The translations under genes were made by a program, and so were the position numbers. DNA of 36,369 bases from Platydemus manokwari (taxonomy: Eukaryota), in contig JBBMOY010000013.1 of NCBI GenBank assembly GCA_037951405.1, positions 1-36,369 on the forward strand, written 5' to 3'. Positions 2,848-36,369 of the stretch are shown one piece after another; within the stretch, counting starts at the first letter, position 1, and each line of letters starts with the position of its first letter. The notes under the pieces are model-generated. The model did not search any database and was not told the DNA's origin. It saw only the letters and a program-made list of their open reading frames with translations.

Positions 2848-3378
2848 ATGGAATGGCACATTTACACAGACGGCTCGTGCCTGGATAATAACCCAGCAGG
2901 CGGGCCTGGTGGTTTAGCTTGGGTGGCTACATATAAGGACTTACGTGCCGAAGGTAGTCGTGGGTTCTTTAAAACAACTAACAACCGTATGGAGATCATG
3001 GCGGTAGTAGACGCATTATCGCAATTACAGGAAAGGTCTGTCGTTAATATTTATACCGACAGTCAATACACTATTGACGGTGCTACAAAGTGGGTGTGGG
3101 GTTGGATTAAAAATGGATGGATAAGACGAACCCAATTTGGCGAAGAGGATGTAAAGAACAAAGATCTGTTCCAACGTCTACATGCGCTCACTCGCTTTCA
3201 TAAAGTAAACTTCATTAAGGTTAAAGCCCACTACGGAATCCCCGATAACGAACGTTGTGACGTATTGGCGAAAGAAGCAGCTGCTAAACCTAATGAGGTT
3301 GACGAAGGGTTTATCCCTAGTGTCAAGAAAGATCCTAGCCAAAAGAGCAGTGGTGGTTGGAATCGCTGGAAACGATAA
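2848..3378 (+). CDS. rnhA: Ribonuclease HI
   Basis: YTDGSC, TTNNRME, YTDSQY, W..NGW, VKNKDL, VKAHYG and NERCD match the RNase HI catalytic D-E-D-D pattern; GGAG SD. Confidence 0.97.
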   Translation: MEWHIYTDGSCLDNNPAGGPGGLAWVATYKDLRAEGSRGFFKTTNNRMEIMAVVDALSQLQERSVVNIYTDSQYTIDGATKWVWGWIKNGWIRRTQFGEEDVKNKDLFQRLHALTRFHKVNFIKVKAHYGIPDNERCDVLAKEAAAKPNEVDEGFIPSVKKDPSQKSSGGWNRWKR

Positions 3379-7690: not shown

Positions 7691-7723
7691 GCCTACTATC
7701 CTTCCGGGATAGTAGGTATGTTT
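7691..7723 (+). terminator. Rho-independent terminator
   Basis: GCCTACTATCC-TTCCG-GGATAGTAGGT followed by T-rich sequence. Confidence 0.75.
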
Positions 7724-7843: not shown

Positions 7844-8206
7844 ATGGCTCGCCAAGTAAATACGTCAATTACAAGATCAAAACATCTGTTGGCTTCTCGC
7901 TTGCAGTATCTGCTATTAAAAGAACTCACCACTACATCTAAGTCCGCTTTATGTACCCGACTGGGAATCAGTAACTACACATTGAACCGTTTGTGCAACG
8001 GTATTTCTCATTACGTCAGTTTAGACCTGATGTTAAACGTAGCTGAAAAGATGAAGTTAAGATACGAATTCACTATCAGGTACGATGGTAAAGGACATCG
8101 CGATTTTAATATTGAGTTAGCACCGATCCATCCTGGGTTAGGTTCTAAGTTCTTAGAACGTTTTGGTGAATTCTTGAAACCCAGTGCTGGAGGATTAAGG
8201 GCGTGA
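7844..8206 (+). CDS. XRE-like helix-turn-helix protein
   Basis: SKSALCTRLGISNYTLNRLCNG..VSLDLMLNVAEKM fits the Cro/XRE HTH pattern; GAGG SD. Confidence 0.7.
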   Translation: MARQVNTSITRSKHLLASRLQYLLLKELTTTSKSALCTRLGISNYTLNRLCNGISHYVSLDLMLNVAEKMKLRYEFTIRYDGKGHRDFNIELAPIHPGLGSKFLERFGEFLKPSAGGLRA

Positions 8207-8505
8207 TTAAGACCCCCAACCTAGATAGATTACATCGCGCTTTATTACCTGCCGTGCAACGTTATCTAACCCACCGTAAGTCATCTGGTTCTAGCTGGCA
8301 ATCACTCGCTATTGAACTAAGAGTCAGTAACAACTCTATCCACCGCATTATGAATTGTGGAGGAACAGGGGTGAGTCCAGAATCATTACTCAGTATTATT
8401 TTTAATGCGGGTGGTTCTGTAGGAATGGAAGTTTCCATCGAGCACTTCTCTTCACATTCATTATTAGAAGGTAAATACAAAAATGTCGCGCAAAAAGAAA
8501 ACTAA
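8203..8505 (+). CDS. XRE-like helix-turn-helix protein
   Basis: SWQSLAIELRVSNNSIHRIMN..VSPESLLSII; GTGA overlap with the upstream gene. Confidence 0.65.
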   Translation: MIKTPNLDRLHRALLPAVQRYLTHRKSSGSSWQSLAIELRVSNNSIHRIMNCGGTGVSPESLLSIIFNAGGSVGMEVSIEHFSSHSLLEGKYKNVAQKEN

Positions 8506-9502: not shown

Positions 9503-9867
9503 AAGGCATAATTCGTGGTAAATCTCAGGCTACCTTAACGGGTAGTCTTACCATAACACGCGACATCGTTAAGAAACAGTCCTATGCTCATCAAGACCAA
9601 CTTGTTATATTCAGACTGAAAGAAGAGTATCCTGAATTCGATCTCCGTGTCTTTGCCACAATCGTTTCTACCATTGCAGTACAAGACGGCTTTAGGGTAC
9701 CACTTTCTCAGTTCAGAGAACTAGTAAGGAAAGAGTTGTTTAAACTGGTCACGGTTATTTTCCCTGATCATGTTTACAACAAAGATACAAACGTTCATAC
9801 ACTTTACGATACCGTCTTTCAATTCATGGAAGACCGTGATAACAAAATTAAAGCATACAAGGGCTAA
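9499..9867 (+). CDS. Hypothetical protein
   Basis: 122-aa ORF, ATGA overlap. Confidence 0.75.
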   Translation: MKGIIRGKSQATLTGSLTITRDIVKKQSYAHQDQLVIFRLKEEYPEFDLRVFATIVSTIAVQDGFRVPLSQFRELVRKELFKLVTVIFPDHVYNKDTNVHTLYDTVFQFMEDRDNKIKAYKG

Positions 9868-9871
9868 TAGA

Positions 9872-10648
9872 ATGGACAAGATCATTCCTGGTAAAGAAGT
9901 GATTCTTCTGTCTGAAGAATCAATGAAAGTAGTTGAAGAAGCAATCGCTAATCCTCCAGCTCCTAGTGCAAAACTGCGTGAACTGATGAATCGCCCTCGG
10001 CGCATTAACGTTGAGGACTTTTTCGTGAATCCGGTTCCTAAGCACGAAAACGATAGTCGTACATTGATGACCATTATTAAAGGTCGTGCAACCCCAGCGG
10101 ATAAAATTAAATTAGCAGTATCCAAAGGTGAACTTATCCCACCCACTCGTACCTTCCAACCTCTGGTAGACGTGGGAGTTCCAGAAACAATGGCGCAGAA
10201 GCTAAACCTTCAGCTGATGGTTGATTACTTTCTGAAAGATCAAGAAGGTAGTTTCCAAGACGCTATTAAGGAAATGGCAGCTCGTATTAAACTCCGTCAC
10301 GGTAACTGGTGTGTTGAGGTTTATAAACCGATGAAGCCGGATACTAAAATCTGGGGAGAGCGGATTGAAGGATACATGCAGCTGGCTGTTTATCAGAACT
10401 TCATCAAACAAGGTCTGTACGAACCTGCGGCATTTAAACGAATGCAGGAAATGAAGGAAGATATCAAGTTCTATGCAGATGCACTAAAACGCGACATTAA
10501 AATTAAGGACGAAGGTGATGCTGTTCACTGGATTACCTGGGGTACCTTAGCTTTGTGTGTTATTTCCCCCTTACTTGATCGTGGGGTCGTTGATCACTCC
10601 AAGGTCGTGTTCTTCTATGAGAAGAAAGCTAAACTTAACCTGAGCTGA
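9872..10648 (+). CDS. Hypothetical protein with N-terminal DUF1778/AtaR-antitoxin-like peptide
   Basis: Likely ATG at 9872, just after the upstream stop; EVILLSEESMKVVEEAIANPPAPSAKLRELM. Confidence 0.75.
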   Translation: MDKIIPGKEVILLSEESMKVVEEAIANPPAPSAKLRELMNRPRRINVEDFFVNPVPKHENDSRTLMTIIKGRATPADKIKLAVSKGELIPPTRTFQPLVDVGVPETMAQKLNLQLMVDYFLKDQEGSFQDAIKEMAARIKLRHGNWCVEVYKPMKPDTKIWGERIEGYMQLAVYQNFIKQGLYEPAAFKRMQEMKEDIKFYADALKRDIKIKDEGDAVHWITWGTLALCVISPLLDRGVVDHSKVVFFYEKKAKLNLS

Positions 10649-12158: not shown

Positions 12159-12163
12159 ACACA

Positions 12164-12194
12164 GGAGCTGGGCTTACGCTCGGCTCCTTTAGTT
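12164..12194 (+). terminator. Rho-independent terminator
   Basis: GGAGCTGGGC-TTAC-GCTCGGCTCC followed by TTTAGTT. Confidence 0.8.
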
Positions 12195-24301: not shown

Positions 24302-25549
24302 TTATAGAAACTCAACGTTGAACCGATTGGTTGGAATCTCGCCGTTGTTTATTTCCGTTGTTAAACTCACGGTCTGACTCATAACATGCTCCGTACCACC
24401 ATCCATAAAGGTGAAGTTTAATGTAGCAGAAGCAGTCAACTGAGCAGTGGTTGAAGAAGAGATTGCTTTAATACCCCAACTGTCATCAGAGAGTTTCACC
24501 AGTTCATATTTGGACGAAACTTCTGGAGTGTCAGTCATGGTGATGTTTGAGATTGGACCACTGATATCTGCACCATTATTGGTAATAGTAAATGCCAGAG
24601 GTTTGGTTTCCCACAACTTAAGTGTCAATGGGGTAGGGGTAATGGTAATTCCCGGCGCATAGATTCTGCTTGGGACATTAACGGTGGAAATATTTTTACC
24701 TACAATCAAGTCGGTAGTTGAAGTTCCTAGTGATATTCTCAGATCCTGTTCCGATACTTGATCTGGAGCGGTTAGTTCAATTTCAAAACGATTTAATAAA
24801 GTTCCACCAGTTCCGCCAGATGTAAATGGATAAATTGTAGAATGTGCTTTCAAGAAAGAGACATTCTTAACTGGGTTATAGTAACCTTTATAGAAAATAT
24901 CAATAAAGATACTTTTCTTAGTTCCTTTAGCAACAAGGAATGGTGTCGGGTCTTTATATTCAGCTTTGATTTGTGTTCCATCATAAGGCGCAATAATAAA
25001 GTTACCACTTGCATTCCGGACCATTTGAGCTGGATCTATCGACGCCGGAAGCTTGAATGTGTAATCTACAGTAACAGTTTTCTCAGGGCCTACAGCTACC
25101 TGAGCCAACCACCAATATTTATTCATGGCAACTGGAGTGCCTGGAGCATATGAGTAATCCAGAATTTCAGGAACAGCACCACGAGTCACATCAGTCAACT
25201 GACTGGTAACATCGACACCGTCATGCCAAACTTGGAATGGTAATGCATTGCCATTTTCCCAAGCTTTAACATGAAGATCTGCCGGACGAACTTCGTAATC
25301 AACTTGGACTACGGTATGTTTAAATGTACAAGGGACCTTAACTTCATAGCGCCCCTGGTATGTAAATGTGAGGTTCAGGTTGTATAACGCCTCTTGTGTA
25401 ACCCCGCCCTTAAATTCATAGGTGATCGAGTCATCCTGAATAGAAGCGATCTGGACGCTCGGGTGAGCGTCCAGTGTGATTACCATTTGAGGATCATTAT
25501 TACTAATTACCTGACCAGCTATACGAACACTACTTTTTAGCGTGGTCAT
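24302..25549 (-). CDS. Ig-like repeat virion fibre protein (candidate adaptor)
   Basis: 415 aa; N-terminus like 25561-29049, C-terminus like 23620-24288. Confidence 0.75.
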   Translation of the reverse strand: MTTLKSSVRIAGQVISNNDPQMVITLDAHPSVQIASIQDDSITYEFKGGVTQEALYNLNLTFTYQGRYEVKVPCTFKHTVVQVDYEVRPADLHVKAWENGNALPFQVWHDGVDVTSQLTDVTRGAVPEILDYSYAPGTPVAMNKYWWLAQVAVGPEKTVTVDYTFKLPASIDPAQMVRNASGNFIIAPYDGTQIKAEYKDPTPFLVAKGTKKSIFIDIFYKGYYNPVKNVSFLKAHSTIYPFTSGGTGGTLLNRFEIELTAPDQVSEQDLRISLGTSTTDLIVGKNISTVNVPSRIYAPGITITPTPLTLKLWETKPLAFTITNNGADISGPISNITMTDTPEVSSKYELVKLSDDSWGIKAISSSTTAQLTASATLNFTFMDGGTEHVMSQTVSLTTEINNGEIPTNRFNVEFL

Positions 25550-25560
25550 TCATGATTCCT

Positions 25561-28500
25561 TTATTCTGGAAGTTTAACGTTTTGAACAACGGTAACAGTT
25601 TGCTTACTATTACCTTCGATGTCCTTAATGAATCCATCGCCAAGTTCGAGAGGATACATTCCTACAGTTAATTGAATACTTGCTGGATATTCAAACTCAC
25701 CATCTTTAATAGTGAATGAGAACAATGCAGTACCCGCAGCTTTAGCTGTAGCATTGAAGGAGATCGTGCCGTCATTGTTGTTGACGAGATCTGCAACAGT
25801 AAACAGGTTATTCTCAACAGTCGGATTCAAAATCTGGGTATTTGCCAGGTTCTCAGATGGATCACCCCAACGGTTCTGATGGATCTGCAACGTAACCGGA
25901 GTTACGAGATTAGGTCCTAACAGAGTGTTGTCGTTGTTGGTTACAACGATAGGTGTTTTGTTGACTTGTACAGAAATGCTACCATTACGGTACAATCCAT
26001 CAATATCACTCAGGTGAAGCATCTTGATTCTAGCATAATCACCGGTCCAACCAGTTTTAAGATCGAAACTGAAATCAGCCGTATTTCCAACCTGAACAGC
26101 TTTAGCAGTATCCTTATTAAAGAAAGGATTTCCGGTAACAGGGTTATTATAGTTACGTTGCCAAATTAACTTACCCGTCATTGGAGAGTTATCAAGCCCG
26201 TTTAGGAACTTATCATTAACAACAGCTTCCGTACTACCCTCTCTGGTTTGACGTACGCCAAAGTTGATGTTGGAGTTCATGTTGGCACCAGCTGTCTTGT
26301 TGATATCCAACCTGACATCGGCTTGGTCCAGTTCACCATAAGTATATGAAGGATCGGAAATCAACCGATACTTAATATAGAACCCTTTGAACCCATCAGT
26401 ATCTTGTCGTATCTTAATGAAGAGTTTCCCTTCATCATCAACACCGACAATCTCAGGTAGTTCTGCAACATCTCTTGTTGAAAGAGAGTAATCAATATCT
26501 GGATCTGTAGGATCCATCTCAATGCCGTCTTTCAAGAATACCAGTTTTTGTGGTGTACCATTTCTATTTCTCAGCATCGGGTTGATAGAGAAACGACGAC
26601 CTTCAACTATACCGCTACCGTTATACACCATAAACTTTCTAGATGTAATATAAACGCTAGCTGTATCGTCGGCAGTCAATCCAGCGTTTGGTGCACCTTC
26701 TTTAATGGTGTATGTCAGCTTAACAGTTTGGTTCTCAAGCTCTGTCCCAGCAGAGCTGGTCAAGATCACATCACAGTACCCACCTTGGGTGGTAACGGAT
26801 TTAACAGTTATGGTTGGGTTATCAGAAACAACTTCGATAACGTCCCCACCTAAGTTAACTCCACCCATCTGTGCAACCGCTCTAACCATTATGTCAGAAT
26901 CAGACTTACCGTAAACGGTTTTATACTGAGGTTGGATTACAACGCTTAGACCTTCAATAGCTTGAAGCTCGATTCGTTTAGGATAGTGAACATTATTCTC
27001 AACAACGGAGTACGTTACAGAACCTGCGCCTTTAGTACCATTACCGGTAACGGTAATTTTGAATGTACCATTCTCGTTAACAACCGTAGCAGCTTTAACA
27101 GTCCCATCAACACTTATATTCCGGATATCAGTAGAGGTTGCAAAGTTCCAATCTTCTTGACCCAAACGTTCCTGAGACCAAGTAACAAAGACATCAGTCT
27201 TAACACCATCAACAAAGTTGAAGTTGTTGTTCAGGACCGTGGCTGTGATAGGTGCTTGGGCAACTAACTGACTACCCGTTGCTTTGTAGACAATGTTACC
27301 ACCAGGGAGACGAACATATTCGGTCATTTCCGCCAGGGCACCAGTCCAGCCTGTCTTAACATTACGACCAAACCCTATGTTGTTTGTAGTGGTAGGTTTA
27401 TCGAGAAGTTCGATAATTGCGTTACCTGTACTTGGGTTGTTAACGTATTTAGACAGCAAGACTTTATCAACTGTTATATCAGCGGAACCAATTTGATATT
27501 TGTTGTTCATGACAACAGTTTCTTGGTTTGGAGGCAAACTACCTGCTAGTGTGTAGGTACAGTCAGTTACCGCGGCGCCGGTTGGGATGGTAATGATTGG
27601 GGTTGTGGTACCTACACCAGGAACGCCATCGATGGTGATTTGATATTGAATACCTGCTGAGGTTGCAGCACCGGTATAAATCAATTTACCGATAAATCCA
27701 CCATCATACTTATCGATGTATTGGCCAGTTGCTTGAGAAGCTGTAGCCACTACAATCTTAACTTTAGGATCATCAACTTTATATTCCACGCCATTACCAT
27801 CAGAAATGGTAATTGGGTAATCGAAGTATCCTTGTTTCTTGATTGACATATCCCTGCTAGGTGGAAGTACAGTTACCTGTTGCATCGACTTAACAATAAT
27901 AGACTGCATTTGCGTTGTAGATGCACCACCATAACCATAAGTGATATTGGTGAAGTTGTTAATATCGGCGCCAGTGTTGTTGGCATCGAGTATCTTAAAT
28001 GTAACAACTTTTCCAACTTTGGATACCACAGATAACCTGGCTGGATTGGCAATCGTAATCTCTACGTCTTCCATAGAAAGTTGAACACCATCCATAGAAA
28101 TAGTTATGGTCTGTTCAACTTCCTGATTTTGCTTACCAGTTAGTACGGCAGGATTTCTAGCATTAAATACAAGACCTGGCTCATAAGCTTTCATGTCGAC
28201 TTTAATATCAACACGGTTTTTACCTACTACACTGTTTGTGCCATTACCGCCGAATACTAACGTACCTTCACCAGTAAAGCTAGCGCTAGCACCAAACGTT
28301 ACCCAGATCTGCTGCGTATCTTTCTTCAGGTCTTGGCTGGAATAGTTAATTGGTGCAGTTGAAGCGAAGTTTTGTAGGTAACGGACGTAATCAGTGCCAT
28401 CACGATAGTTACGATATTTGAAGGAGAACTTAAGCGGTGTTAACGTCCCAACAGGAATCTTGAACTCTTCAAACAGCGGAGTGATGGTTAACTCTTGTCC

Positions 28501-29049
28501 GTCGTAAGTTGCTACGATAAACTCACCAGTAAATGAACGAGTTACCCCTGGGAGATCATCACTTAAACGGAAAGTGTAATCGATGTTGATAGTAGTCTGG
28601 CTAAATGCCGACTCAGATTCGATAGTCCAAGACTTAGAACCTGTATCACCTGCTTTAACAATGCTCTTAGGTGTAAATGCAACGTCCACCACATTTGCAG
28701 TAACGTCTTCACCACCTTTACTTACCGTAAATGGTAAGGCATCACCACGTGCCCAACACTGTGTGTTAATAGGAGCAGAAGTAATAGTAACTTTAGACTC
28801 TGTACCCATGTTAACCAACGACAGAGGTTGCTCAAGGGTATACAGTTCTTTATATACGAAAGACAGACTAAGGTTGTAGAGGGTGTCCGTGGGGACACCC
28901 TCTTTAAACGAGTATGTAATATAGTCATCACCGATCTCGGAGATTTCGACTTTCGCCGCATCAGCTCCAGTCAGGGTAATGACCATATTGGGATCGTTAT
29001 TACTTAGGGCCTGTCCATCGAGTAACATTGCTTGTTTTAATGTACTCAT
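25561..29049 (-). CDS. Large Ig-like repeat virion fibre protein
   Basis: 1162 aa of ~90-100-aa beta-rich repeats; NNPxTGN..KTGWTG occurs twice. Confidence 0.75.
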   Translation of the reverse strand: MSTLKQAMLLDGQALSNNDPNMVITLTGADAAKVEISEIGDDYITYSFKEGVPTDTLYNLSLSFVYKELYTLEQPLSLVNMGTESKVTITSAPINTQCWARGDALPFTVSKGGEDVTANVVDVAFTPKSIVKAGDTGSKSWTIESESAFSQTTINIDYTFRLSDDLPGVTRSFTGEFIVATYDGQELTITPLFEEFKIPVGTLTPLKFSFKYRNYRDGTDYVRYLQNFASTAPINYSSQDLKKDTQQIWVTFGASASFTGEGTLVFGGNGTNSVVGKNRVDIKVDMKAYEPGLVFNARNPAVLTGKQNQEVEQTITISMDGVQLSMEDVEITIANPARLSVVSKVGKVVTFKILDANNTGADINNFTNITYGYGGASTTQMQSIIVKSMQQVTVLPPSRDMSIKKQGYFDYPITISDGNGVEYKVDDPKVKIVVATASQATGQYIDKYDGGFIGKLIYTGAATSAGIQYQITIDGVPGVGTTTPIITIPTGAAVTDCTYTLAGSLPPNQETVVMNNKYQIGSADITVDKVLLSKYVNNPSTGNAIIELLDKPTTTNNIGFGRNVKTGWTGALAEMTEYVRLPGGNIVYKATGSQLVAQAPITATVLNNNFNFVDGVKTDVFVTWSQERLGQEDWNFATSTDIRNISVDGTVKAATVVNENGTFKITVTGNGTKGAGSVTYSVVENNVHYPKRIELQAIEGLSVVIQPQYKTVYGKSDSDIMVRAVAQMGGVNLGGDVIEVVSDNPTITVKSVTTQGGYCDVILTSSAGTELENQTVKLTYTIKEGAPNAGLTADDTASVYITSRKFMVYNGSGIVEGRRFSINPMLRNRNGTPQKLVFLKDGIEMDPTDPDIDYSLSTRDVAELPEIVGVDDEGKLFIKIRQDTDGFKGFYIKYRLISDPSYTYGELDQADVRLDINKTAGANMNSNINFGVRQTREGSTEAVVNDKFLNGLDNSPMTGKLIWQRNYNNPVTGNPFFNKDTAKAVQVGNTADFSFDLKTGWTGDYARIKMLHLSDIDGLYRNGSISVQVNKTPIVVTNNDNTLLGPNLVTPVTLQIHQNRWGDPSENLANTQILNPTVENNLFTVADLVNNNDGTISFNATAKAAGTALFSFTIKDGEFEYPASIQLTVGMYPLELGDGFIKDIEGNSKQTVTVVQNVKLPE

Positions 29050-29064
29050 GGATTTTACAGTTCC

Positions 29065-32000
29065 TTATTCAGGGTTAAGTACAAATTGTGTTAACGTCAC
29101 AGGATTATCAACGTCACCTTGCCCAGTGGATTGGAATCCTGGTGCTGGGGTCAACTTAGGATGCAGAGATTGCTGAGTAACATTCAAAATTGCGGTGGCA
29201 ATTTCCTTCTTACTCCAAATGCCTGAGAAACCGAATTGAACATTGGTGGTCTTAGCATTTTCAGTGATGTCCCTAACAAACCTAACATCAAAGCTATCCT
29301 TGGTTACTGACCCAGGTACCAACTCAATCACGTCAGATGGAGTGCATCCTTCCCAATCGTGAGTGGTTAGATCTCTTTGAATACCAGCATAGTTACCACG
29401 GGCGTGGATGGTGAATACATCACCAAACTTGCCAGTTATCTCTTTAGGTACCGGTTCCGTTAATTGGAATGGAGCTGCCGTGCTGTAAACAGTTAGCTCT
29501 ACAGGAACTTCGAACTCCCCAGTTGGATTACCCTCAACCCCACCATCAATTCTGATTCTGAAATTTTGGATACCAAATGCAGTCACGATGTTACTAGATT
29601 TAGCGGTAATTTGAAGCTTGGTATTAAACTCCGTTGTGCTAATCATCGATACATAACGCGGACCATCACCATACCCAGACCATCTAACCATCTTGACTAT
29701 TGTATCTCCTTTATATAGGGGAACAATGTTAAACCAAGCTTGGGAACCAAGAGTGAATGTGGTAGTACCTTCAATTTTAAATGTGTAAGGACTTCCGTCA
29801 TAAGCAGCAATGTTAAACGGAACTTCTACCGTTCTCTTAAATCCTGATGGATCTGTAGATAAACGATAGTACCATGTCGACATTACCACCTTAGCAGGTT
29901 GAGCGGCTTCAGCGATAATCTGATAAGTAGGTCTTGGAGAAACATTAATCATGTTCTCATTATCAACAAGTTCGACATCGTAAAGACCCTGAGGTATATC
30001 GCTTGAGTCAACCACTTGGAAAGGGGTTTTGGATGACTTGTCCCAAACCTTAACATCCATCTGGGTAAGTTTGACGAACATGTTCGGTTTAACTGTCAGA
30101 TCTATTTCGTGTATGGCAAAACGACCATCACGATCAGTAACCTTCAGTGTAACAACCTCGTTAATGTCCTCTGTTGTTGTCATCGCAACATCGAAACTGA
30201 CATCCCCAGCATTACGCATACCCAAAGTCATGTAATCAGCCGGTTCAACATTCCACGTTAATCCAACATCATCAAAACGACGATTATTGCCATCGATAGT
30301 CAATGTACCAGTAAAGGTAATCCGATCTCCTTTCTTACCGGAGGCAGAATCAGGACTTAGGGTCAGAACAAAACCAGAAGAATCGATTTCCGCCGTAACG
30401 TCCAGAGTGACTTGATATTCATATCCATCGCCATCGGTTACAGTGAATGTAGCACTACCAGCTCCGGTTTCACCTTTACCATAGAAGGTAGCGGTAAATG
30501 TTCCATCGCTGTTACCGATCGTATCGACTTTCTGAATAGCCCCAGTTATAGTTACTGTATCAGAAATCGTTGCATCAGAGAACGTGTAATGTTCTACAAT
30601 GTCATTGATTAAACGTTCTTGCGATAGAGTAAATGTCATAGCCTTGCTAGCATTGGTAATGCCATTAATAACCCTATCAGCACCACCAACTGTAATTGTA
30701 GCTGGAGGAATAATCAGTTCAGAATCACGCAATACCCAGTTATCAGCAAGGTCAGGGAATACCGCAACCATGTTTATGGTAATTTTCCCACCCGTCCAAC
30801 CGGACTTAAACTTCAGTGCATTGCGATAAATATCACCAGGTGCCTCTATAAGTTCAAGTTCGCCAAGTAAAGCATTACCCGTTGAAGGATTGTTTTTACC
30901 TGATAATGATAGAACAGTTGTAGGTTTGGCGATATTGTAACCTGATCTTTGGAATTCAACAGGGATAATGTTCTCTGCATTACCCAAAGGCTCCTTCAAA
31001 GCTTTTAACGTTACTGGGACTAAGTTAGTCATACTGTAACTTGCTTGAATGTTAACATACCCCGATATCTCAGGTGGATTAACACCATCGTTATACGTCA
31101 CCATAATACGGTTAGTAAACGATGCAGCAGCATCTGGTTTGCGATTAAAAGCGAACCAAACGTATCGATCTTCAATCCCAACAATATCAAAGATTGGTGG
31201 AGTAACTGTCGACGCATTACTGACTTCCATAGACAAACGAGGGGCATTTGGCTTAAGTAACACACCACCGTAATAAATCTTGGCATCCCAACTGAATGGT
31301 CTAGCATAAACTTGGGTAGAAGGAACCAGTGTGATTGGAAGTACGGATAGCCCTTTGTTAACATAAATACCTGTAAAATTACCAACCCATTTATTCACAT
31401 TAACTGTGGTGCCTGGTGTATCATCAATCGTGAGAGTTAATACACATGCATTACTTCCTGATCCAAATGTGTCAGGTGCGGTATACTCAATGACTACCCC
31501 AACTCCATCACCAGCAGGTCCCACTATAGTTATAGGTACTGTGAATAAAGTACCAACTTGAACAGTCCCACTAAATCCATTTGCTAATGGCTTCCCTCTA
31601 TACACAGGCCAAACCGTAAACCGGTTGGTGTTGTTACGTGATACAGGAATTTCTGTAGTTACCCCAACACCACGGCCATAGTCAACGGTTACCTTAAATG
31701 CAATGCCATCATAGGCCGCTACGTTGTAATTACCACGAGCAGTAAGCGTTTCCCAAATTCCATTAACTTTGGCTTCATACGTGAAGTATTGTGGGAATAA
31801 GGTTTCAGTTGTTCTTCCATCAACAACTTCCCATGAATTAGGATCGTCAGGTAATGGAGAGAAATATTGTCCATTCTTGATCAATCTAACATTTCTGATT
31901 TGATCATTTATCAATACGCCATTGTTATATACATCAAACGGTGGAGTATTTAGAACATCAAACACTTTGACTTGGACAGTCTTCTCAGTTGTCGTAATCT

Positions 32001-33636
32001 TGTTAGCAAATGAAGCCTGTACGATGACACTGAAATCCATCTCAGTTCCACCTGTTGGTTTAAACTTACCATAAATCCGTACATCGCCCTCAGAACCTCT
32101 AGCGGCTAACTGTTGTGACATCTGGCCGTTTTTGAGGTTTGTCCCACTTGTACTAGCAGCAGCCCCTTCAACGTAAACCATGGAGAAATCACCAGGGATA
32201 AGTTCTAATCCATTTCCTCGATCTTGTTTACAAGAAATCAGAACAGCAGAATTAGCACCCGCATTACCGTTAACAGTTTTAGTATTGGTGGTGAAAACAT
32301 ATGGGGCTTCAGGAATATCGAATCCTGAATCAGAGACTAACATCGGATAATACCAGTCCCTTGGATAGCTTTTGGCAATATACGGACAACGAATCACCAC
32401 ATTAGTAAAGAGAGCACGCTGTGCCATCCAACTAGGTTTAGTTTCGGCAACAACCCTACCGATGGAATTAACTTTCTTACCGGATAAATCAACGGTTTGG
32501 ATGATAGTATTTGTGGAGGTATCAGTTATCCTCAATTCACCTTTTTCAAATACAGCGTCAAAAGGTTCAAACCAAGCATAAGGGATCGTGGTGGTTAAAT
32601 CACCTATTTGTACAACAGCATTTACTTCTTTATTGGCAACAGGACCTATAAGGAAGTTAGACATATAGAAGTTATTAGGACCAGAGTATGTCGTAACGCT
32701 TAGCTTTTGAACTGCTGTTTTTGCTCCCTTTGTGACCGTCAAATCGACGTTACCCATTGGAGGATTACTGGAACTAGCAGGCGGTTGTTTTAATGTCCAT
32801 TTAATACCATCTGACTGGACTGTAATTCCAAGACGGTTGTTAGGACTTGACATGTTACCAGCATCGGTTAATGTGTAACTTATAGACGGGTCGGTTAGTG
32901 AAAGCTTTGTGGTTCCCTCATAAAGTTCGAAGAACGACATCGCCTTGTAGCTTAGAACACCGGAAAAGTTTACACTGTACCAGTCCCACATGACTATAAC
33001 CAGATCTGTATTCCCTGCCACGATAATTTTTGCACGGGCAATCAGGTTAACAAAGTTTTTGTCTGATACAGGATTTGAGGGTACCGGAAGTCTATTGACT
33101 CTTATCGGTAACCCTGCTAAGGCATTAACAGTTGCTCCAACGAGAACAATGCGGTGCGTTACGCCATCTTCTAAAACTTCTTGACGAACTATAGAGACTC
33201 CTGGGTAAGGTGTCAGGCCGGTAACTGAAAGGGTTGCTTCCACCTCACCAGCTTTCAGTAATACACCTTTATAGGTGGCCTGATAGTCTAAAGTAAATTC
33301 CTTATTCTGCTCTGATACCACCACGCCCGTACTTGGATTGGTAAAATTTACTTTGAACTGTCCTGCTGTAGTTGCAGATACAGTTATATCAGTGGAAGCT
33401 TCCAATTCATAAGGAAGTCCACCATAATCAACTTCTAGTTTAAATGTTGTCGCTTCGGTAACGTCTTCTTCATCGGCAGCAATAACGGTGAATGTGGCAT
33501 CACCGTTCGGCTTCAAATAGGGGGAGGGAACTCCCCCTTGCTCGATTGCTGTCAGACGGATATTGTTAGTAATATCTTCGCCCGAAATAGGATCGTTAAC
33601 CTGAAACGGAACAAGTGAAGATTTGTTCAATTCCAC
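29065..33636 (-). CDS. Large Ig-like repeat virion fibre protein
   Basis: 1523 aa; GTG start with AGGA SD; recurrent VKV[WF], AAYDG, SQER and GWTGG motifs. Confidence 0.75.
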   Translation of the reverse strand: MELNKSSLVPFQVNDPISGEDITNNIRLTAIEQGGVPSPYLKPNGDATFTVIAADEEDVTEATTFKLEVDYGGLPYELEASTDITVSATTAGQFKVNFTNPSTGVVVSEQNKEFTLDYQATYKGVLLKAGEVEATLSVTGLTPYPGVSIVRQEVLEDGVTHRIVLVGATVNALAGLPIRVNRLPVPSNPVSDKNFVNLIARAKIIVAGNTDLVIVMWDWYSVNFSGVLSYKAMSFFELYEGTTKLSLTDPSISYTLTDAGNMSSPNNRLGITVQSDGIKWTLKQPPASSSNPPMGNVDLTVTKGAKTAVQKLSVTTYSGPNNFYMSNFLIGPVANKEVNAVVQIGDLTTTIPYAWFEPFDAVFEKGELRITDTSTNTIIQTVDLSGKKVNSIGRVVAETKPSWMAQRALFTNVVIRCPYIAKSYPRDWYYPMLVSDSGFDIPEAPYVFTTNTKTVNGNAGANSAVLISCKQDRGNGLELIPGDFSMVYVEGAAASTSGTNLKNGQMSQQLAARGSEGDVRIYGKFKPTGGTEMDFSVIVQASFANKITTTEKTVQVKVFDVLNTPPFDVYNNGVLINDQIRNVRLIKNGQYFSPLPDDPNSWEVVDGRTTETLFPQYFTYEAKVNGIWETLTARGNYNVAAYDGIAFKVTVDYGRGVGVTTEIPVSRNNTNRFTVWPVYRGKPLANGFSGTVQVGTLFTVPITIVGPAGDGVGVVIEYTAPDTFGSGSNACVLTLTIDDTPGTTVNVNKWVGNFTGIYVNKGLSVLPITLVPSTQVYARPFSWDAKIYYGGVLLKPNAPRLSMEVSNASTVTPPIFDIVGIEDRYVWFAFNRKPDAAASFTNRIMVTYNDGVNPPEISGYVNIQASYSMTNLVPVTLKALKEPLGNAENIIPVEFQRSGYNIAKPTTVLSLSGKNNPSTGNALLGELELIEAPGDIYRNALKFKSGWTGGKITINMVAVFPDLADNWVLRDSELIIPPATITVGGADRVINGITNASKAMTFTLSQERLINDIVEHYTFSDATISDTVTITGAIQKVDTIGNSDGTFTATFYGKGETGAGSATFTVTDGDGYEYQVTLDVTAEIDSSGFVLTLSPDSASGKKGDRITFTGTLTIDGNNRRFDDVGLTWNVEPADYMTLGMRNAGDVSFDVAMTTTEDINEVVTLKVTDRDGRFAIHEIDLTVKPNMFVKLTQMDVKVWDKSSKTPFQVVDSSDIPQGLYDVELVDNENMINVSPRPTYQIIAEAAQPAKVVMSTWYYRLSTDPSGFKRTVEVPFNIAAYDGSPYTFKIEGTTTFTLGSQAWFNIVPLYKGDTIVKMVRWSGYGDGPRYVSMISTTEFNTKLQITAKSSNIVTAFGIQNFRIRIDGGVEGNPTGEFEVPVELTVYSTAAPFQLTEPVPKEITGKFGDVFTIHARGNYAGIQRDLTTHDWEGCTPSDVIELVPGSVTKDSFDVRFVRDITENAKTTNVQFGFSGIWSKKEIATAILNVTQQSLHPKLTPAPGFQSTGQGDVDNPVTLTQFVLNPE

Positions 33637-33652
33637 GGTATTTTCCTGTTAA

Positions 33653-36369
33653 TTATTCTGGATTAAGAACACCCTGTTTAAGAGTCACAGGATTCTCCAT
33701 ATCCCCAGAGCCTGTTGATTCGAAACCAGGAGCTGGCGTTAGTTTAGGATGAGCTGCAAGCTGTCTAGCTGTGAACGTGGTTCGTCCAGTGCCTTCTGTC
33801 ATGTAGCGCATACTAACTGTCATTTCTGTATCTTTACTGTTCTCCGTGATATCGGCAAGGAACCTGACTTTAAACCCATCGGCGGTTCTAGACCCAGGGA
33901 CCATCTCCACAATACCAGCAGGAGTGAATGCAGGATCTTGCCATGATGGATTGTTCACGTCATTGCGATTACCACTAAGCCAAACTTTAATGGTGACCGG
34001 TATTTCCTCACCAAATCTACCCACTAAAGGATTCGGTTTAAAATCACTTAATGCACTTCGGTTATAGAAATCATAAATAGTGATGATAAATGTAACAGTA
34101 ACTATATCTTGGCCAGGCACACTTCCAGTACCAACACGGATTGAATACGAGTTCGGTATTTCAAACGTGTTACTCGTATTAACTGACCTAAATGTGAATC
34201 TTCCTTGTCCTTCGAAGTTGGTGTAATCCGCGGTGGCGATGGAAGGAGCACTAATAGGTCCGATATTTGTGGGTTTCTCGGTGACTGGTTCAGCCCTACG
34301 GTAAACGAAGAAGTCACCCTGGAATTGAGAGCTTGCAACATATCTGTAAAGAGGGTACTGTGGAACTGCCGTTAATATATAACCGTTATGTGCTTCAACG
34401 TTATAAGTAATATCGATTGTTCTCTTCGTTCCTTCCAAATCAGTAGGTAAACGGTATTCCCAAGTCACCACTTCGGTTCTGGCCGGTAACACGCCTTCAC
34501 CTTTCACAGTCCACATGTTCACAGCCGGTTTATTCCTGTTCTCCATCTTAACGGCGATTACAACATCGTCATTAATTGGTTTGCAGTCCAATACCGTATC
34601 TGTGATATCAACTTCACCTTCCTTCATTACGAAAGGATAACCGTTAATACGTTCCCAGACCTTAACGTTGAACACCTTAGGTTCGATGGTCAAGTTTTTC
34701 TTAACGTTAACCGTTACCGGTTGGGAAACTGTCATACCTAAGAAATTGGCAGTGACATTAACTACTTGGGTTACGTCGTCAGGGGAGTTACGCACAATAC
34801 GAAGATCAAACGTTCCAGCAGTACCATTCTCAAATTCAACCCAACCTTCATGTTCAACCGAGTAGATCATGTTCCCATTGGAATTATCCCAACGAAGATC
34901 TGTGTCGTTATACTTCACTGTACCGGTAATCGTTGTCACGTCACCAGCGACACCTTCTACAACGTTGTTCTCCAGAACCATTGACATCGGGCTTGAATCG
35001 ATGACTGCATTAACATTCAGAACGATATCAATACTTTCCCCATCGTCATCCGTGATCGTCATGGTTATCGTCCCAGGACCCTGAGTACCATTACCATAAA
35101 CGTCAACAAAGAAGGTTCCTTTGTTGTTAAAGGCGGCAGAAGCTTGTTTAACTGACCCGGTAACAACTCCGACAGGATAAATCTCGGCATTGGTAAAGTT
35201 GTAGTTGGTTGTTACACCATTCACCCTACGCTGTTGGGATAATGTAAACCGAATCTCAGTCTTACGATTCTCTATCCCGTCAATTTGATTTGTGGCTTGA
35301 GTTACGTCTACTGGTACCGGAGGTACTTTAATTATAACAGGTTGTGTCGAATAAACGGTTGGGAATTCCCAGGTACCAAGATAGAATATCTCACCACCTT
35401 TCCAACCAGAATCGAACTTCAAAGCGCCCTCAGGTAAGTACTCAACCCCGTTGACCGCAACATCAGAACCAGCAGGAGTTATTTTTACGTTCGCCCTTCC
35501 AATTAACTTAGGAGCTGGGAAAGGAGAAAGAGGATCAACGTAGAACTTGGTTGGTAATGTGTTTTCGGCGTTAGCGACTGGATCACCAATGACTTCCATA
35601 ATTGGAATGGTGGTAGCTCCACTGCTAAATCCAATTGTTAATGCAGATGGTACTGTGGAATGCACTGTCCCGTCAGGAGCTGTATATTTAACTGTCGCTA
35701 ACTGATACCAACTAGCCGAACCTGTGGCAGCTCTATACGTAAACAGATAAATAGTTGTTGCGTCCGAACCCGCATACTCAACAAACTTAGCTTGGTTTGG
35801 ATGACCTTCAATCACGTAATCCAAACGAGGGTCATCAAGTTTCAGTCTGACAGCATCAAAGTAGACGGCCGGTTGCCAGTTCCTGGTACTACCCAATCCT
35901 CCATAACTAGGAGTAGGTGAGGAATGTTCGACATACAGACCTTTCTGAATAGCAGTGAGCGTTACCGTTTCACTCACAACGGTTTTTTGGTTAACCAATT
36001 CCTCAATGGGAATCCCTTTAACCTGATAATAGAACGTGATGGAGGCGGTCGTATAGTTGGTACCGATACCCAATGTTACAACAATACCGGTTCCTTCATC
36101 GTTAACCTTCTGTCCTTTGAACTCAATGCCGGTTCGAGTAATTGGTCTCAGCTCGATATTTTCAAGATCAAGTTTGCCCTTATATTGAGGGTAGAAGGTA
36201 TAGGTATACGTCCCACCTAAAGGAACCTTCGGATTCTTACTCGTTCTGTCCCCAGGGATGTACTCGGCATTGGGGACGATCGCAATCCCATTCCACGCTG
36301 CAATATCGTAACTACCCTGACCGATTTGATTAATGACGCCGCTGGCTAGAACCAGATCATAAGTAAAGT
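33653..36369 (-). CDS. Large Ig-like repeat virion fibre protein (5' end outside window)
   Basis: I read the frame from 36073 to the window end and found no stop; collinear with the C-terminal part of 29065-33636. Confidence 0.75.
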   Translation of the reverse strand, partial: FTYDLVLASGVINQIGQGSYDIAAWNGIAIVPNAEYIPGDRTSKNPKVPLGGTYTYTFYPQYKGKLDLENIELRPITRTGIEFKGQKVNDEGTGIVVTLGIGTNYTTASITFYYQVKGIPIEELVNQKTVVSETVTLTAIQKGLYVEHSSPTPSYGGLGSTRNWQPAVYFDAVRLKLDDPRLDYVIEGHPNQAKFVEYAGSDATTIYLFTYRAATGSASWYQLATVKYTAPDGTVHSTVPSALTIGFSSGATTIPIMEVIGDPVANAENTLPTKFYVDPLSPFPAPKLIGRANVKITPAGSDVAVNGVEYLPEGALKFDSGWKGGEIFYLGTWEFPTVYSTQPVIIKVPPVPVDVTQATNQIDGIENRKTEIRFTLSQQRRVNGVTTNYNFTNAEIYPVGVVTGSVKQASAAFNNKGTFFVDVYGNGTQGPGTITMTITDDDGESIDIVLNVNAVIDSSPMSMVLENNVVEGVAGDVTTITGTVKYNDTDLRWDNSNGNMIYSVEHEGWVEFENGTAGTFDLRIVRNSPDDVTQVVNVTANFLGMTVSQPVTVNVKKNLTIEPKVFNVKVWERINGYPFVMKEGEVDITDTVLDCKPINDDVVIAVKMENRNKPAVNMWTVKGEGVLPARTEVVTWEYRLPTDLEGTKRTIDITYNVEAHNGYILTAVPQYPLYRYVASSQFQGDFFVYRRAEPVTEKPTNIGPISAPSIATADYTNFEGQGRFTFRSVNTSNTFEIPNSYSIRVGTGSVPGQDIVTVTFIITIYDFYNRSALSDFKPNPLVGRFGEEIPVTIKVWLSGNRNDVNNPSWQDPAFTPAGIVEMVPGSRTADGFKVRFLADITENSKDTEMTVSMRYMTEGTGRTTFTARQLAAHPKLTPAPGFESTGSGDMENPVTLKQGVLNPE

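Follow-up and report, generated by a model that had tools for sequence, protein, structure and literature searches.

The question raised by this locus is why a phage protein should begin with what looks like one half of an antitoxin. The window, that is, the whole stretch of DNA analysed, is an entire contig of 36,369 bases from a metagenome assembly, and the gene concerned, P0001, lies on its forward strand at positions 9872–10648 and encodes a protein of 258 residues. Three parts can be recognised in this protein: an RHH-less C-terminal module of the TacA/DUF1778 type (residues 3–41, positions 9878–9994), assigned by Pfam, PDB and a bacteria-only profile as the equivalent of the βB-αC-PPAP-αD segment of KacA; a variable, likely disordered linker (residues 42–92, positions 9995–10147); and a mostly helical carrier domain known from jumbo phages (residues 93–258, positions 10148–10645), orthologous to OBP_173, Survivor XCN28268 and AH04_160. 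In the AlphaFold2 model of P0001, helices are predicted at residues 15–26 and 33–39 with a pLDDT of about 55–60, the linker at residues 41–92 is of low confidence (pLDDT <50), and a folded domain begins at about residue 93.

The longest open reading frame of the window at this place would start at 9770, a start that was rejected, as the orthologue in Shewanella phage SXP01 has an in-frame stop two codons upstream of the methionine shared by both proteins. Because of this stop, and because six of eight homologues keep the same start register, the ATG at 9872 is taken as the start of P0001; the peptide singled out in the earlier note is in frame from this codon and forms the N-terminus of the 258-residue protein. 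Full-length homologues number eight (48–73% identity), word-index searches yielded nothing beyond six close ones, and NCBIfam gave no match to either the whole protein or the peptide. The closest relative in an annotated genome, 72% identical, is the ORF of SXP01 (genome of 269,939 bases), which is lytic and a relative of Klebsiella phage N1M2 (PMC12571629). This ORF, at L004:12001-12768, is itself absent from the GenBank annotation, which holds 193 features against the 283 ORFs given in PMC12571629.

The resemblance of the peptide to the toxin-binding half of DUF1778 antitoxins, which the earlier note had proposed, is borne out by all three of Pfam, PDB and the bacteria-only profile. Residues 3–41 align with positions 39–77 of the 80 in Pfam PF08681 (TacA1), i.e., with its C-terminal half only, and the peptide alone matches this DUF1778 profile with 24.5 bits (E 2.7e-5), above the cut-off of 21, while the whole of P0001 scores 19.9 bits, slightly below it. 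Among the six PDB matches of the peptide at E<=10, five are DUF1778/KacA chains (E 9e-4 to 7e-3) and the other is a 36-residue chain of entry 7ak9; the matches are AtaR and KacA-type chains and include fragments of 46 and 36 residues. Entry 7ak9 pairs its 36-residue antitoxin-like chain with an acetyltransferase chain, and RHH-less fragments therefore co-crystallise with toxin. The bacteria-only profile, built from 88 antitoxin C-termini encoded upstream of GNAT toxins, part of which came from searches with phage-derived profiles, gives the peptide 40.4 bits, a score reached by none of 5000 shuffles (maximum 10.3), and the runner-up among 678 six-frame segments of the window has 6.6 bits. ESM Atlas clusters of 48–65 residues resembling TacA1, with scores of 0.82–0.84, are a lead only.

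Structural knowledge of KacA allows the comparison to be carried to single residues. In KacA, αC and αD flank the PPAP linker (PMC6698736), and the helices predicted at residues 15–26 and 33–39 of P0001 correspond to these two. When the KacA residues that contact KacT, taken from PMC6698736, are counted by hand in the peptide, 7 of 15 are identical, 5 similar and 3 different, and 6 of 19 non-contact positions are identical to KacA, so that the enrichment at contacts is mild. KacA R77 and M65/I68/Q70 are replaced by K, E, I and N in the peptide; in KacA itself, the R77A and M65A/I68A/Q70A changes abolish neutralisation (PMC6698736).

Among the bacterial antitoxins sampled, those closest to the window peptide belong to the KacA/AtaR clade, and for this reason the toxins of that clade are its likely target as far as sequence can indicate. 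A profile of 12 phage sequences places an antitoxin of the ItaR clade at the top of 47 antitoxins (42.1 bits), and the toxin of this antitoxin matches PDB entry 7byy, which we take to be ItaT, with E 2e-80. Since the peptide is nearest to KacA/AtaR whilst the phage profile scores the ItaR clade highest, different phages may aim at different toxin clades.

What the locus lacks is as informative as what it holds. The absence of the RHH half, already reported by the earlier note, is confirmed: the module starts at residue 3, the best RHH score among the ORFs of the window is 2.9 bits, and two RHH profiles both remain below 4 bits there, the antitoxin of the phage Cyrano toxin-antitoxin (TA) pair serving as a control with 75.9 bits. 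Likewise, no GNAT toxin is found among the ORFs of the window (control Cyrano toxin, 225 bits), and the supposed fusion to an unrelated domain is real, as the module is joined to the jumbo-phage carrier. The placement in an early operon fared worse, since a promoter scan returned seven promoter-like sites against 12.2 expected. Terminator-like hairpins at 7691–7717 and 12163–12188 flank the gene run containing P0001. Elsewhere in the window, two tandem HTH genes lie at 7844–8505, as in OBP_166/167 and Survivor, the NAD-dependent DNA ligase (35–1780) and RNase H (2848–3378) are in an order shared with SXP01, Survivor and AH04, and four large genes without a PHROG match occupy 24302–36073 on the reverse strand, three of them with weak Ig- or cadherin-like Pfam matches and possibly encoding virion fibre proteins.

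Judged against the features of the TacA/DUF1778 family, P0001 has the neutralising segment and lacks both the RHH domain and the two-gene toxin-antitoxin operon. The peptide thus stands outside the TacA antitoxin family by its RHH and operon structure, yet likely works like the neutralising half of such an antitoxin. With the orphan antitoxins of phages it shares two properties, being encoded by a lytic phage without a cognate toxin and having an antitoxin-derived or antitoxin-like sequence. One might object that the cognate GNAT toxin is encoded by the phage itself at a distance, because the window covers 36 kb of a genome whose size is likely near 270 kb, which leaves most of the phage outside it, and because one GNAT gene occurs in phage Totoro. 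This explanation is hardly credible: the complete genomes of SXP01, GN1, CBB and KP15 (four of the five phage genomes searched) contain no GNAT toxin match, and the one in Totoro, the fifth, is partial (model positions 92–149 of 169) and lies about 149 kb from the module. Nor does any of 17 phage loci carrying the module contain a GNAT toxin, the best score being 4.6 bits compared with 225 for the control.

The history of the protein can be read from its uneven conservation and from its neighbours. Mean column identity to P0001 among homologues is 0.90 for residues 9–41, 0.35 for residues 42–92 and 0.62 for residues 93–258, and the best 33-residue stretch reaches 0.90 in the module versus 0.72 in the carrier. 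In six homologues, residues 1–44 are 84–98% identical, compared with 51–73% for the whole proteins, and over 44 codons P0001 and SXP01 differ by 10 synonymous versus 6 non-synonymous codon differences. By its neighbouring genes, the window is tied to four jumbo phages, namely OBP, Survivor, AH04 and Miami. At the syntenic position, OBP, Survivor and AH04 encode the carrier orthologues OBP_173, XCN28268 and AH04_160 (profile E 4e-8 to 3.5e-6), which are 197–201 residues long and devoid of the module. A module search of the whole genomes of these four phages found none, SXP01 being the only match among the five searched. Because the syntenic orthologues in OBP, Survivor and AH04 are without it, the module was most likely added in the SXP01 lineage, as a lineage-specific and recent graft, and to judge from column identity its sequence has from then on been kept more strictly than that of the carrier. 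As to the carrier domain, a Foldseek search of BFVD gave four matches at E<=4e-5, the two named ones being from phages N1M2 and pEt-SU, whereas the PDB held no Foldseek match at E<=0.001, VIA reached a best Z of 6.2 and the Atlas gave no usable match, the domain having been folded within the whole protein.

Outside this lineage, the nearest neighbours of the module are the stand-alone, RHH-less ORF73 of Yersinia phage GN1 (score 115) and P0087 (99). Both outscore the best sampled bacterial antitoxin (81), which suggests that the donor of the module was phage-borne. A tree built from 37 columns, too short to count origins, leaves the groups of SXP01, Straboviridae and Agricanvirus separate; in it, the window groups with GN1 and P0087 (support 0.86), together with some bacterial antitoxins.

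The module is, by the sequence comparisons, both widespread and portable, which goes beyond what the earlier note had seen. Out of 50,697 phage records, 194 are matched by the peptide at E<=10, and most of these belong to phages of Klebsiella, Enterobacter and Cronobacter from the KP15 and RB43 groups. Ten loci from these 194 matches, plus AH06, were inspected. The RHH-less module, either alone or on unrelated carriers, is found in Slopekvirus, Pseudotevenvirus, Moabitevirus, Agricanvirus, Mimasvirus and Justusliebigvirus phages. It stands alone in GN1 (62 residues) and in the IMG/VR loci L017 and L140; it is C-terminal to a cysteine-rich domain in KP15, RB43 and phi5 (Straboviridae) and in CBB (Mimasvirus), N-terminal to one in FKP3 (Justusliebigvirus), internal in Totoro (Moabitevirus) and AH06, near the C-terminus in Ea35-70 (Agricanvirus), and on unrelated carriers in the loci L023 and L138. 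The weakest phage copies on the bacteria-only profile are AH06_114 (8.7 bits) and Ea35-70 (16.1 bits). The IMG/VR pattern scans gave 16 and 21 loci; 5 of the former and 4 of the latter were dropped because the motif lay outside any in-frame ORF, and a first locus search of viral contigs with the window peptide or P0001 confirmed none. The module gene of CBB, gp560 (L010:2399-2632), sits within a cluster of tRNA genes, a position that fits a counter to tRNA-targeting defence. Cyrano, which carries ParA and P1-like genes and provided the controls, encodes a full antitoxin with a KacT-type toxin.

When 1.84 billion representatives were searched with the profile of 12 phage copies, 455 clusters matched at E<=0.001, all of these clusters being devoid of genomic context. 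Among the 149 new top clusters, 148 reach at least 15 bits with the bacteria-only profile. The motif lies within the first 35 residues in 85 of them, and 82 have a length of no more than 75 residues, although some short clusters may be cut gene calls. RHH domains are detected by two profiles in six of the 149, and visual inspection adds about four with RHH-like starts of another kind; a full-length Pfam TacA1 match occurs in P0150 only. One member, P0097, a HEAT/LRV repeat protein, is a false match. The shortness of the motif and this one false match among 149 might suggest that a captured antitoxin gene has left a neutral relic, or that sequences converged on a proline-kinked helical motif. 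Conservation largely refutes such an origin, which we regard as very improbable: the module is more conserved than its carrier, it recurs in many lineages, and the score of the peptide was never attained by shuffling.

RHH-less copies are not confined to phages. Of 400 genomes sampled in one class of proteobacteria, 88 match the antitoxin family, and at bacterial loci matched by the module profile, a full GNAT toxin lies beside the antitoxin in 26 of 30, these loci having been drawn from 65 of 401 genomes with a match. Of 40 metagenome loci, on which the phage share of RHH-less copies rests and which are biased by the query, 33 have a GNAT toxin, one has an RHH at the contig end and six have neither, and it is these six that place RHH-less copies beyond phages. 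Two examples may be given. At L172:2905-3069, a cas operon has a module of 55 residues inserted between its cas4 and cas2 genes, and the 4-kb locus contains no GNAT toxin; at L141:1403-1579, one of 59 residues directly follows an AbrB/MazE-Doc toxin-antitoxin pair, beside an integrase. A second class of antitoxins also came to light upstream of GNAT toxins (L110:1318-1623, L144, L146, L152-L154, L171 and L175), having the same C-terminal module behind a divergent RHH that is missed by Pfam TacA1, which matches the last third at most. In five clusters (P0128, P0137, P0084, P0099 and P0122) the module has been added to, or placed within, another protein, the hosts being a ribonucleotide reductase, a peptide deformylase, a deaminase, a dATP/dGTP pyrophosphohydrolase and a DUF1937 protein, and three others (P0017, P0114 and P0144) have two copies each.

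It is conceivable, though unlikely, that the module descends from an antitoxin and now serves as a generic tag that folds on binding another partner, be it a protein of the host or of the phage, or a protease adaptor. The great diversity of its carriers, which include a ribonucleotide reductase, a peptide deformylase, a deaminase and a membrane protein, would agree with such a role, as would the bacterial RHH-less copies without a toxin and the common tail of the phage copies, more uniform than the bacterial one (E 0.69, L 1.0 and M 0.81 of 16 rows). That same tail is nevertheless present in bacterial antitoxins upstream of GNAT toxins (L110, L146 and L077), and along its whole length the module retains both the strand-helix-PP-helix pattern and the hydrophobic positions of toxin contact.

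The reading that we favour, with somewhat better than even confidence, is that residues 1–41 of P0001 represent the toxin-binding half of a TacA/DUF1778 antitoxin and bind and inactivate host tRNA-acetylating GNAT toxins as a means of counter-defence. Strong conservation, together with repeated use in unrelated lytic phages, makes a functional decoy likely. GNAT toxins halt translation by acetylating the amino acid carried by charged tRNA (PMC7180214, PMC9177977), and KacA's C-terminal part wraps around the monomer of the toxin, hampers acetyl-CoA binding and prevents dimerisation (PMC6698736). By analogy with the KacA-KacT structure, the peptide would fold on binding into a strand, a helix, the PPAP turn and a second helix, and would wrap the toxin monomer so as to hinder acetyl-CoA binding and dimerisation. 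Host shut-off would release the toxin from its labile antitoxin, the module would sequester it, and translation would keep running during infection. A copy devoid of the RHH would neutralise the toxin without operon repression or dependence, which would suit a phage, and the carrier, mainly a supply of expression and stability, is probably incidental given the variety of carriers. The isolated C-terminal fragment is reported to suffice for neutralisation. In the native KacA-KacT complex, the RHH helix αA and the second antitoxin chain also touch the toxin (PMC6698736). Pairing in GNAT TA systems is mostly cognate, with one cross-neutralisation reported (PMC9431474), and one peptide may therefore cover few toxins.

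Whether GNAT toxins are met by phages as a defence or as a nuisance is a separate matter. The roles reviewed for GNAT-DUF1778 pairs are the maintenance of mobile elements and a contested part in persistence (PMC7180214), PADLOC (library of 2023) has no match for four GNAT toxins and two antitoxins, and in the mainly open literature, judged from abstracts, no report was found of an antiphage role of these pairs or of a phage TacA mimic. The module might bind GNAT toxins so as to cancel the incidental release of toxin from plasmid or phage-plasmid addiction modules during shut-off, or might disturb TA autoregulation. The lack of an antiphage report in the literature searched agrees with this, as do the full pair in the P1-like phage Cyrano and the plasmid records, 571 of which match at E<=10, the best being DUF1778 antitoxins with 48.7% identity. 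Retention in several unrelated lytic phage groups nonetheless implies a real effect on fitness, in practice defence, and we rate the explanation by addiction modules a little lower even than that of a general binding tag.

If counter-defence is indeed the function, its meaning extends to the hosts. The role of GNAT-DUF1778 TA systems is disputed, and a phage-borne peptide neutralising their toxins would, if true, be direct evidence for a role in defence against phages, one that could be tested with laboratory phages such as RB43 and RB16. The broader proposition, namely that large lytic phages share a portable, DUF1778-derived tag of 35–40 residues, employed by itself or on arbitrary carriers, that neutralises GNAT toxins, and that its spread reveals the large family of GNAT-DUF1778 pairs as an unrecognised antiphage defence, is given slightly less than an even chance. 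A search strategy also suggests itself, because unannotated phage proteins may conceal, in the form of short tags, the neutralising parts of further antitoxins; such tags may escape annotation, since P0001 as a whole scores under the Pfam cut-off and its SXP01 counterpart was left unannotated.

When set against known systems, the module is like the type II antitoxins TacA, AtaR, KacA and ItaR (DUF1778, PF08681) in its C-terminal segment of strand, helix, PPAP and helix, with 7 of the 15 KacT-contact residues identical, and unlike these GNAT-RHH systems in having no RHH and no toxin gene, in being fused to a phage domain and in being encoded by a lytic phage. Small phage proteins such as T4 Dmd, TifA and ICP1 Gp145 offer a functional parallel, and to our knowledge none of the three is homologous to the neutralising segment of a host antitoxin. 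They act on different toxins. They bind a host TA toxin directly (PMC10100988, PMC13728456), as is predicted for the module. Closer in origin are AdfN, a NADAR protein of T4-like phages (PMC11825919), and AdfM, a macrodomain of chimalliviruses (PMC13309987), both directed against DarTG and, like the module, antitoxin-derived, without a toxin and encoded by phages; AdfN, too, is without an N-terminal domain, which was lost (PMC13728456). AdfN and AdfM are enzymes of proven function that remove ADP-ribose from DNA, whereas the module is a predicted binding peptide of 40 residues that moves between carriers and whose proposed target is a tRNA-acetylating toxin rather than DarTG. The word GNAT is absent from the November 2026 update on counter-defence (PMC13728456). 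A "DUF1778 domain-containing protein" of Klebsiella phages VAC13 and VAC66 is the Slopekvirus member of the module family (PMC10100988), annotated under "TA system" in a table of that paper, whose accessible text makes no mention of a missing RHH or toxin, of its spread or of a test. This entry is the only prior notice of the family that we found, and supplementary tables of anti-defence screens could list further members. Orphan antitoxins of phages are, in sum, already known for other toxins, as AdfN, AdfM and Dmd illustrate.
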